DNA from: a virus
Taxonomy: Duplodnaviria; Heunggongvirae; Uroviricota; Caudoviricetes
IMG/VR virus record: IMGVR_UViG_2923350032_000001
Location: 1-64,000 of that record
Length of the DNA stretch: 64,000 nt
Reading direction: 5' to 3' (one strand)
A program made the position numbers and the translations under genes. Below are positions 21,267 to 23,196 of this stretch, one piece after another (the stretch's first letter is position 1; each line of letters opens with the position of its first letter). The notes under the pieces are model-generated. The model saw nothing but the letters and a program-made list of their open reading frames with translations. It was not told the origin of the DNA and searched no databases.

Positions 21267-21833
21267 TCACTTCAACATGGATGAGAAAAGAACAATTCCC
21301 GGGATAATTGCCCTTGTTGCGCTCATTTTCTCTTCCAGATCCAGCTTTCGCTGATACAGCGTGTTCTCGTCGGATAAATTGCTGACATCGAGTTTCCCCG
21401 CGATAGATATTCTTCGCAGGCGATCAGTGTTAGGTATTGCGATTAGCACTTCCAGATAGTCAGAAAGTAACCCAATGATTTCAGGTGGCACTTCCCCATT
21501 ATCCAGATCCATATCACGCAAATTAGCCAGATATGACACATTCAGTGGGTATACCGCTCGATGGGTATCTTCAAGCTCGATATTCCCATCGTAAACGTCG
21601 GAGTAGACAAGATCGCCGGTATGATCCGTAACCGATACGAGCGCAAGAAAATCAGCAGGGCAAGCAAGTGATTTACAGGTCTGATCAGTGAAGCGTATCC
21701 GCTTGATGTGTCCCGCCCTATCCTGGTAGGTTCCCAATGCTTTTCTTAGCAGGGATTCCAGTAAGGCAGGTTCATCCGCAATCAAAGGTGTGAAGCGGGA
21801 TTTGACGTCTTCGAGTAATTGTCGTGGTGTCAT
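21267..21833 (-). CDS. Hypothetical protein, function unknown
   Basis: 188-aa ORF whose stop lies 14 bp from the IS26 end. Confidence 0.4.
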
Positions 21834-21963
21834 TGAAACCTCGTAGAATCTGGTGTGTTAACTGATTCTACGAGATGTCATTTGTCCATTGTGCCAACTG
21901 TTATTATGGATATCGTAATTCGTACGAATCGCGCTGTTACAGGATGTATAGCAACCTTAATAA

Positions 21964-23196
21964 TTATTTGAATATATCGGTTATAGTTGGGTAATTATAC
22001 ATCTTAAGCTTATCTCTAAATTTCATAGAAAATATAGGGTCTACCTTACATCTCTGTGAGAGCTTTGCAAGCCTTAGCTCCCTCTCTTTCATAATATCTT
22101 TGTATTCTCTATCAATACTCTCCTGAATTTGCTGATTCTCAACAGGAGACGGTTTTGTAATTTTATCCCATTGATAAGTTGGATTCTCAGTGTAATTTAA
22201 ATCATCATTTTGAAGTAATTTCTCAAGATGAGACATAGCATTTTCATATAGCATTCTATCTTGGGGCAACATACTTGCAACACGCACTTCGCTTTCAATT
22301 TCCGATACTATCATTTCAAGTTGACGTTTTTCCATCGCTATAGCTACACGGAATGGAAACAGGGCTTCTTGCTTAATCATTTGACAATTCACATTATTGT
22401 TTATGTCACTAAGTAATTTTACAAATGAGAACTTCGCTAAAGGCTGCTGATTTATGACACTCTGTCTAACTGGCATTGTGTAGCTCGGTGTTTTTTCAAG
22501 TGTTTTCTTCACTTGCTCTATAGCAACATTAGGAGTTTTGAGAACAGTCTTTGCTGGAATACGTAGCACCATAAACCCCTCCTTTATTGAATATTCATCA
22601 CGAATACGATCTCGCTCTATTTGTTCAGGGGATGAATGCCATGCTGCACCATCAATTTCTATAATTTGGCGTCCATTTACGACAAAATCAAAACGATAAC
22701 GCTTATAGGGCACTTGCATTTCAAGCACTAAGTCAGGAGAAACTAACATTCCAGATTTAGGTTTAAGATTAAACTCTGCAACCATTTTACGAAGAAATGC
22801 CTCCTCAGCCGGAGATTCGCAACCTTTGCAAAATATATCAAGCCAGTTTTCTGCGTCAGCGTCAACAGTTTGCCACCATGCTAACAGTCCGCGTCGGTGT
22901 CCATATAATCGTTCATCTGACGGTTTTGTTAATGGCTTTGTTAACGGTTTAATTAAGGGTTCATTTAACGGCTTATTTAACGGATTTAATAACGATTCAT
23001 TTAATGGTTTGATTGACGGTCTATTTGACGACTCAATCGGTGGTTTAGATGATGATTTGTTTTTTTTATCAAAACCTACGATAGTTATATATGCTACATA
23101 TAGCATCATGCCTGCAACAGGCCATACACATGGATAAATCACGTAACACAACAGTAATAGAACAATAGTCCCAAAAAATGTTAACTTCTTCCGCAT
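21964..23196 (-). CDS. Membrane-anchored protein with Pro-rich tetrapeptide repeats and a DUF559/Vsr-like endonuclease-fold domain
   Basis: 410 aa; N-terminal TM helices; PLNKPLNEPLIKPLTKPLTKP repeats; motif IEIDGAAWHSS...RDRIRDEY...GFMVLRI; low-GC gene. Confidence 0.55.
   Translation of the reverse strand: MRKKLTFFGTIVLLLLCYVIYPCVWPVAGMMLYVAYITIVGFDKKNKSSSKPPIESSNRPSIKPLNESLLNPLNKPLNEPLIKPLTKPLTKPSDERLYGHRRGLLAWWQTVDADAENWLDIFCKGCESPAEEAFLRKMVAEFNLKPKSGMLVSPDLVLEMQVPYKRYRFDFVVNGRQIIEIDGAAWHSSPEQIERDRIRDEYSIKEGFMVLRIPAKTVLKTPNVAIEQVKKTLEKTPSYTMPVRQSVINQQPLAKFSFVKLLSDINNNVNCQMIKQEALFPFRVAIAMEKRQLEMIVSEIESEVRVASMLPQDRMLYENAMSHLEKLLQNDDLNYTENPTYQWDKITKPSPVENQQIQESIDREYKDIMKERELRLAKLSQRCKVDPIFSMKFRDKLKMYNYPTITDIFK
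22922..23030. repeat. Imperfect 12-bp tandem repeat array (about 9 units) inside ORF 21964-23196
   Basis: Units GGNTTNNTTAAY repeated head to tail; encodes the Pro-rich tetrapeptide repeats. Confidence 0.7.

Follow-up and report, generated by a model that had tools for sequence, protein, structure and literature searches.

Gene content of the locus

The DNA examined here, referred to below as the window, is a stretch of 64,000 nucleotides (positions 1 to 64,000 of IMG/VR virus record IMGVR_UViG_2923350032_000001) and is that of a P1-like phage-plasmid. Our subject is a gene encoding a 410-residue protein with an N-terminal membrane anchor and a DUF559/Vsr-like nuclease-fold domain, placed between pmgC and the c4 gene of immI, which is the slot of sim (superimmunity) in P1. 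A preliminary description of this DNA, made from its letters alone, had reported the gene as one of two co-oriented open reading frames (ORFs) between the insertion sequence IS26 and immI; both ORFs are present on the minus strand and the location holds (Table 1). The same description presented the two as a low-GC pair, with the second gene, of 188 codons, as partner of the first. The 410-residue gene is indeed AT-rich (36.6% GC), as is the decayed region upstream of it (35.6%), but the 188-residue gene is not: its GC content of 46.9% resembles that of the backbone (~48%). Its product matches phrog_1851 ("PmgC-like head morphogenesis") over the full length (E 1.6e-102) and is annotated as PmgC in phages P1, P7, SJ46 and RCS47. 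PmgC is counted among the 21 most conserved P1 genes in a published comparison (PMC9603915), and pmgC is found in 508 of 5426 complete Escherichia coli genomes. This identity, together with the backbone GC content, rules out the 188-residue gene as a functional partner of the 410-residue gene.

Megablast comparison of positions 21200-24500 reveals that P1, P7, SJ46, RCS47 and related phages match the two ends only: pmgC at one, c4/icd/ant (immI) at the opposite one. The alignment to P1 breaks off at pmgC and picks up again at immI, and the middle portion (~21850-23940) is covered by no phage record. The gene order in P1-like carriers is sit-pmgB-tub-pmgC, then the gene of the 410-residue type, then further genes up to c4-icd-ant. 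The sim slot of P1-like elements has been published as a variable, low-GC region (PMC9603915), and the region at 21840-23960 occurs in 22 of the 5426 E. coli genomes, plasmid-borne every time, which amounts to 22 of the 508 genomes (~4%) with a P1-like pmgC; both facts bear out the accessory character that had been ascribed to this island. PLSDB contains it in 19 plasmids as well, including one from Cronobacter. In the databases the gene is labelled solely as a "DUF559/endonuclease domain-containing protein." A tblastn search of 50,697 phage records, P1 and P7 included, with the 410-residue protein returned no match at E values up to 1e-3; the gene is thus absent from P1, P7, D6, SJ46, RCS47 and the rest of the phage collection.

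These data bear on whether the gene serves P1 itself, as a housekeeping or lytic function (such as morphogenesis or the breakdown of host DNA) expressed together with the late genes that follow it, pmgC-tub-pmgB-sit. The gene and pmgC do share their orientation, with 130 bp between them and pmgC downstream. Such a role is nevertheless very improbable for a gene that is found in so small a fraction of pmgC-carrying E. coli genomes, is missing from the five phages just named, departs from the backbone in GC content, and has its homologues mainly on the chromosomes or plasmids of non-enteric Proteobacteria.

Table 1. Features of the variable slot and its borders (positions in the window; AF2, AlphaFold2; pLDDT, predicted local distance difference test; TRF, Tandem Repeats Finder)
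Feature	Position	Strand	Evidence
Gene for the 410-residue membrane-anchored DUF559/Vsr-like nuclease-fold protein, single-gene unit	21964..23196	-	ORF; Pfam; 373 homologues; AF2; GC 36.6%
Two-helix membrane hairpin, residues 2-41, predicted topology N-in/C-in	23074..23193	-	AF2 helices 2-20 and 22-41; hydrophobic block
Disordered Pro/Lys/Ser-rich linker, residues 45-103	22888..23064	-	pLDDT <50 (AF2); TRF
Nine 12-bp LxKP units, residues 57-92	22921-23028	-	In-frame reading of TRF repeats
Vsr-like/DUF559/MTES_1575 PD-(D/E)xK nuclease domain, residues 104-235	22492..22887	-	Pfam; Foldseek; conserved motif residues
Helical domain, residues 236-410, common to membrane-anchored DarT1 toxins	21967..22491	-	Long helices in AF2 model; residues 240-410 profile
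pmgC, conserved P1 backbone gene, outside the unit	21267..21833	-	phrog_1851; P1/P7 annotation
Decayed upstream gene: 67-residue lipoprotein N-terminal remnant (23503-23706), then out-of-frame Gly/Ala-rich stretch	23299..23706	-	phrog_1277, E 9.8e-14; RefSeq pseudogene call in identical plasmid; TRF
immI regulatory elements (a1/b1 targets; C4 antisense RNA) at the opposite edge of the slot	24009..24214	+	Rfam RF03163, 51.4 bits; RF01695, 70.8 bits
IS26, 820 bp, cutting tub 17 nt past its start	20433..21252		Inverted repeats and BLAST against relative locus L001; IS26 match

Domain architecture and membrane anchor

The 410-residue protein was modeled using AlphaFold2 from an alignment of 89 sequences, giving a mean pLDDT of 81.8. 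Its order of domains (transmembrane hairpin, linker, nuclease, helical domain) is preserved in the 89 aligned homologues, which come from Alpha-, Beta- and Gammaproteobacteria. The wider family comprises 373 homologues, mostly of 340-420 residues, in hosts that include Pectobacterium, Pantoea, Aeromonas, Pseudomonas, rhizobia, sphingomonads, Rhodobacterales and Roseomonas, and nearly all of its members retain the hydrophobic N-terminus and the motifs described below.

The two N-terminal helices coincide with a hydrophobic block of 39 residues (4-42) whose flanks, MRKK and DKKNK, carry net positive charges of +3 and +2, respectively. This block is kept in nearly all full-length homologues. The positive flanks and the existence of DarT-fused relatives (see below) suggest that the nuclease lies on the cytoplasmic side. 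Much of what the preliminary description had read from the translation stands up in the model and the profile searches: the N-terminal transmembrane helices, the nuclease-fold segment, for which the DUF559 profile scores above its cut-off and two solved structures share the fold, and the helical C-terminus, made of long helices with pLDDT >90.

The nuclease domain

The model shows an alpha/beta domain at residues 104-235, with pLDDT >90. The Pfam match to DUF559 (PF04480) spans residues 159-233 with 32.1 bits (cut-off 20.6), and MTES_1575 (PF18741) scores 36.2 bits, just under its cut-off of 38.2; nothing else in Pfam is matched by the 410-residue protein. Precomputed matches to the same two families are present in nearly all homologues. 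Foldseek indicated a close structural relationship, with a probability of 1.00, to the catalytic domain of I-Bth0305I (3r3p; TMt 0.81) and to the DUF559 protein NGO0050 (3hrl; TMt 0.79). Matches in the viral structure library were to the nuclease domain only, and the full architecture was found in none of its entries.

The residues that are invariant in the 89-sequence alignment are W118, C126-E-S-P-A-E131, Y167, R168, F171, E180, D182, H187, D196, R199, D200 and R212, while D170 is present in at least 90% of the sequences. D170, E180-x-D182, H187, D196 and R199 align with the matching residues of 3hrl, as the D...ExD...H...D..R motif. Since the putative catalytic residues are both conserved and aligned to those of 3hrl, the predicted enzyme looks active and under purifying selection. 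The family therefore has profile, fold (TM-score ~0.8) and motif in common with DUF559/MTES_1575 nucleases such as NGO0050 and I-Bth0305I; but that group typically consists of small soluble proteins, or of domains at the C-terminus of helicases such as Hhe, whereas the present family adds the hairpin, the linker and a helical domain of 170 residues.

That the fold belongs to the Vsr-like group, and that some homologues are labelled "very-short-patch-repair endonuclease," could be taken to mean that the protein is a Vsr-type mismatch-repair nickase or the remnant of a restriction system. We regard this as extremely improbable. The Vsr family itself (PF03852) gives no Pfam match at E values up to 1, no cytosine methylase adjoins the gene in the window or in the P1-like relatives, and the membrane anchor is without counterpart in Vsr repair.

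A tether of variable length

Between hairpin and nuclease lies the linker, in which the preliminary description had noticed about nine 12-bp repeats and had suggested that they could mediate length variation. Tandem Repeats Finder detects the array at 22920-23026, with a period of 12 (6.7 copies) or 24 (4.5 copies), and the in-frame reading gives the nine units SNRP SIKP LNES LLNP LNKP LNEP LIKP LTKP LTKP. Across the family, a median of 34 residues (5th-95th percentile 29-39) separates the CESPAE motif from the end of the hydrophobic block, whereas in the two P1-borne alleles the separation is 83 (the protein of the window) and 91, which marks the repeat tract as an insertion peculiar to the P1 alleles. 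Comparison of alleles that are otherwise at least 90% identical reveals six units in a protein of 398 residues, nine in that of the window, eleven in one of 419 residues and twelve in one of 423 residues. The suggested length variation is thus real and, as every variant is in frame, it concerns the length of the tether and is not on/off phase variation.

The helical domain and its kinship with DarT1

In the remainder of the protein, residues 258-399 form long helices, and the domain modeled alone reaches a pLDDT of 90.3. No Pfam family is matched by this C-terminal domain. A profile built from residues 240-410 retrieved only 213 representative clusters among 1.84 billion proteins. About 18 of the profile matches listed are proteins of 494-609 residues in which the helical domain lies at approximately residues 50-300; all seven of those scanned begin with a hydrophobic block, continue with the helical domain and end in a DarT domain. 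The helical-domain match is supported by hidden Markov model E values of ~1e-13 to 5e-8 in the DarT1 proteins confirmed with Pfam, and by an hhalign probability of 96% (E 2e-9). At both of the DarT1-fusion loci that were retrieved (L093, 6001-8288; L095, 6001-8452), the N-terminal membrane block of the toxin is multi-helix and the next gene encodes the NADAR-DarT1 antitoxin.

A single membrane and helical module has therefore been joined to two different DNA-targeting effectors, a DUF559 nuclease and DarT1, as is typical of conflict systems. The requirement of DarT for NAD+ (nicotinamide adenine dinucleotide) argues for a module facing the cytoplasm. Further arrangements are seen in P0124 (758 residues) and P0146 (568 residues), where three tandem copies of the helical domain, and not a single one, come after the DUF559 nuclease, and in P0135 and P0151, short stand-alone helical-domain proteins encoded on short contigs. 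The kinship is with a subset of DarT1 toxins only, and the differences are clear: the fusions carry an ADP-ribosyltransferase as effector, follow the order membrane block, helical domain, effector, and have a NADAR gene next to them, whereas none of these features is present in the window and the 410-residue protein has no Pfam match to DarT. The paper that describes DarT1-NADAR and its ADP-ribosylation of guanine in DNA (Schuller et al. 2023, PMC11543638) makes no mention of a membrane-anchored DarT1.

The helical domain is also where alleles diverge. Between the 410- and 419-residue alleles the first 235 residues are nearly identical (synonymous divergence, dS, ~0.01), whereas in the helical domain dS is 0.097 and the nonsynonymous divergence, dN, is 0.064, giving a dN/dS of 0.66 against 0.046 for pmgC, values that derive from one allele pair with few substitutions. 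This suggests recombination together with relaxed or diversifying selection, and the pattern is as expected of a specificity domain.

Distribution and genomic neighbours

All-against-all clustering of the ORFs at 56 loci from other genomes revealed no conserved neighbour, the largest non-self cluster comprising four loci at varying offsets. The gene consequently constitutes a single-gene unit without antitoxin or immunity partner, and this agrees with control through where the protein sits, not through a partner.

Individual surroundings are diverse. The Pseudomonas member adjoins a type I restriction-modification system, a resolvase and Fic, while the Pectobacterium member adjoins fis, with ASCH and Exo_endo_phos genes. 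The Mesorhizobium member adjoins an SMC-like three-gene operon; at that locus (L011, 9483-13308) the operon encodes products of 412 and 176 residues and a 686-residue SMC_N/AAA_15/AAA_23 protein, a gene of more than 1,500 codons is present as well, and the neighbourhood looks like a defence island. Scans of the 113 nearest neighbours with Pfam and PADLOC place ~11 of them among the integrases, transposases or resolvases. The most reduced setting is a 2,998-bp ColE1/Rop plasmid of Shigella flexneri (L096, NZ_CP058889.1), on which an unannotated member with 52% identity (1902-2960, minus strand) is the sole substantial ORF beside rop. The matching E. coli protein cluster, P0006, with 64 members, is likewise located on contigs of ~3 kb.

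Occurrence as a single gene at unrelated sites, at times as an orphan between housekeeping genes, would also suit a selfish mobile nuclease, either homing-like or an addiction element, which cuts competing or empty DNA and has no role in immunity. The recombinases and transposases among the neighbours are compatible with this, as is the fold of the nuclease domain, whose nearest matches are I-Bth0305I, itself a homing endonuclease, and the DUF559 and homing endonucleases of phages. It is nonetheless quite improbable. The hairpin and the 170-residue helical domain are conserved throughout the family, and we know of neither a membrane hairpin nor such a helical domain in homing endonucleases. 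At every locus inspected the gene is free-standing, lying inside no intron, intein or interrupted host gene as EDxHD/Vsr-like homing endonuclease genes of the I-Bth0305I type do, and the 50,697 phage records contain no match.

Comparison with known systems

The closest parallel is SNIPE (PD-lambda-1; Saxton et al., Nature 2026, PMC13190303), which consists of a transmembrane segment, DUF4041 and a GIY-YIG domain, cleaves lambda DNA during injection, and is toxic when its transmembrane segment is removed. SNIPE and the 410-residue protein each come from a single gene without immunity partner. Each is anchored in the membrane by its N-terminus, varies in an N-terminal or tether region, and combines a domain without catalytic role, in the middle or at one end, with a nuclease that is predicted to be cytoplasmic, and the logic proposed for both is that self and non-self are told apart by location. 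The parts themselves are different. SNIPE has one transmembrane segment, DUF4041 and GIY-YIG, whereas the 410-residue protein has, in another order, a two-helix hairpin, a PD-(D/E)xK nuclease of the Vsr/DUF559 type and an unrelated helical domain; it gives no Pfam match to DUF4041 or GIY-YIG and no PADLOC match to PD-lambda. The two are analogous, not homologous, and while the function of SNIPE has been demonstrated, that of the 410-residue protein is what we infer.

A second comparison is with the genes that occupy the same slot elsewhere, simC-simB-simA in P1 and upf50.0/upf50.5 in P7, with which the 410-residue gene shares its position, orientation, low GC content and variability between P1-like elements. 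Sim stops superinfecting P1 when its DNA enters or afterwards, and SimC is not a nuclease but is exported to the periplasm. The tblastn search described above reveals no homology of the 410-residue protein to SimA, SimB or SimC. In plasmids with the 419-residue allele the gene adjoins the P7-type genes and does not replace them.

Among the defence systems modeled in PADLOC, Hhe (a helicase with a Vsr-like nuclease) and PDC-S37 have an MTES_1575-type nuclease domain in common with the 410-residue protein, which differs from Hhe in being devoid of a helicase. The literature yielded no paper linking DUF559 to a transmembrane anti-phage system, nor any that treats the family as a system. Databases already contain the sequences under generic names.

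Proposed function

The 410-residue gene is probably a single-gene barrier to incoming DNA. More specifically, and more tentatively, we propose that its product is a stand-alone immunity or exclusion factor, a Vsr/DUF559 endonuclease tethered at the cytoplasmic face of the inner membrane. A role in defence or exclusion, already raised in the preliminary description as a candidate, was a reasonable idea and is now better supported, although it is still one that we infer from architecture and context.

On this proposal the tether would hold the nuclease off the chromosome and the resident P1 plasmid, and would put it where foreign DNA, that of a superinfecting phage or possibly of a plasmid, passes the membrane. 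The helical domain would sense or position, whether through recognition of the entry machinery or of DNA, through dimerisation, or through auto-inhibition. The Pro/Lys-rich tether would set the reach of the nuclease, its length shifting in steps of four residues. Incoming DNA would be cut during or just after entry, with survival of the lysogen and of the P1 element, and self-protection would be a matter of location, perhaps with auto-inhibition, instead of a partner protein.

The strongest competing reading is that of an abortive-infection or toxin effector, in which the membrane holds an inactive nuclease that is freed or activated by perturbation of the envelope or of the sensor, and indiscriminate degradation of DNA then kills or arrests the cell. 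To our knowledge DUF559/Vsr-like domains have no built-in discrimination between self and non-self, which would suit such an effector, and the gene is also present outside phage-entry contexts. Further in its favour, the helical domain is common to membrane-anchored DarT1 toxins with NADAR antitoxins, and the DarTG family is described as toxin-antitoxin phage defence. We consider this unlikely all the same. No antitoxin or other conserved neighbour accompanies the gene, and an unguarded toxin would be risky as the near-sole cargo of a 3-kb plasmid; a conserved, permanent tether is more simply read as the positioning of an enzyme; and SNIPE provides an example of a membrane nuclease that acts directly and leaves the cell alive (PMC13190303).

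Several points weigh against a tethered nuclease that cleaves DNA at entry. The kinship with DarT1-NADAR points equally to an abortive-infection toxin. The predicted TM-score (pTM) of the model, 0.49, leaves the relative arrangement of the domains undefined, and the flank that follows the hydrophobic block is slightly acidic in most homologues, so that sequence alone leaves the topology unsettled. The PADLOC matches to PDC-S37 (6e-5) and Hhe (0.007) are weak and confined to the nuclease domain, spanning ~60-100 residues of profiles of 1,500-1,900 positions (for Hhe, residues 179-236 against positions 1726-1783 of 1911). Few of the 113 nearest neighbours match PADLOC defence models, a modest enrichment lacking a control set, and the Aeromonas member is an orphan amid housekeeping genes.

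The proposal of a nuclease positioned at the membrane can be taken further, in a form that we hold to be rather doubtful. The family would then represent a second, independent class of entry-site effectors, in which the hairpin and a helical sensor recognise DNA translocation and drive either a Vsr-like nuclease or, with NADAR, DarT1. The slippage-prone LxKP tether would tune the reach, and P1-like elements would use the protein in place of Sim against rival phages and other P1-like elements.

Other features of the region

The IS26 copy lies 14 bp past the stop codon of pmgC. It is the boundary of the resistance region and is incidental to the 410-residue unit; relatives have tub-pmgB-sit at its position. 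The exact IS26/pmgC junction does not occur in the set of complete E. coli genomes. A partial IS26 left end of 278 bp (20155-20432) directly precedes the complete copy. The remainder of tub, as well as pmgB and sit, is nowhere within the 64-kb window; with tub cut as well, the P1-like element may be phage-defective, unless those genes sit beyond the window. A block of high GC content (60-65%) at 16393-19922 contains an ORF of 988 codons and a resolvase-like ORF of 186 codons; it looks like a Tn3-family transposase/resolvase pair within the resistance region that IS26 joins to the P1 backbone.

The decayed gene on the immI side is the relic of a P7-type lipoprotein gene, which is intact in plasmids with the 419-residue allele. 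Plasmids with that allele retain P7-type DUF5384 and membrane-protein genes upstream, intact at the relative locus L002, and in the window these genes are reduced to the lipoprotein remnant and the Gly/Ala-rich frame. Within the Gly/Ala-rich part, ~100-160 bp upstream of the 410-residue gene, lies a 9-bp tandem array, CACCACCAG (23299-23354; 6.2 copies with 97% matches by Tandem Repeats Finder), which is shorter by three copies (27 bp) in the otherwise identical plasmid NZ_CP158185.

The antirepressor gene ant1/ant2 (24479-25524) is broken into two ORFs of 194 and 147 codons. The window aligns to NZ_CP158185 without gaps here, with ~1 mismatch in 4.6 kb, and RefSeq flags ant in that plasmid as frameshifted; given the split, the antirepressor function of immI may have been lost.

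A scan for promoters and terminators gave sites no more numerous than in shuffled sequence. The 12-bp palindrome ATTCGTACGAAT (21918-21929) was considered as a repeated P1 late-promoter box and rejected, as it occurs in a single copy in the window, below chance expectation.

Significance

Should the proposal prove correct, discrimination between self and non-self by location, just established by SNIPE, would have arisen at least twice from unrelated parts. A nuclease and a DNA ADP-ribosyltransferase would share one membrane and helical module, which would offer a handle on how bacteria sense the entry of DNA. The natural series of tethers, with 6, 9, 11 and 12 units, represents a ready experiment on the reach of a tethered nuclease. 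A function would also be assigned to an unannotated accessory gene of clinically common P1-like resistance phage-plasmids and of 3-kb ColE1-type plasmids, which would be relevant to phage therapy and to the way P1-like elements compete.

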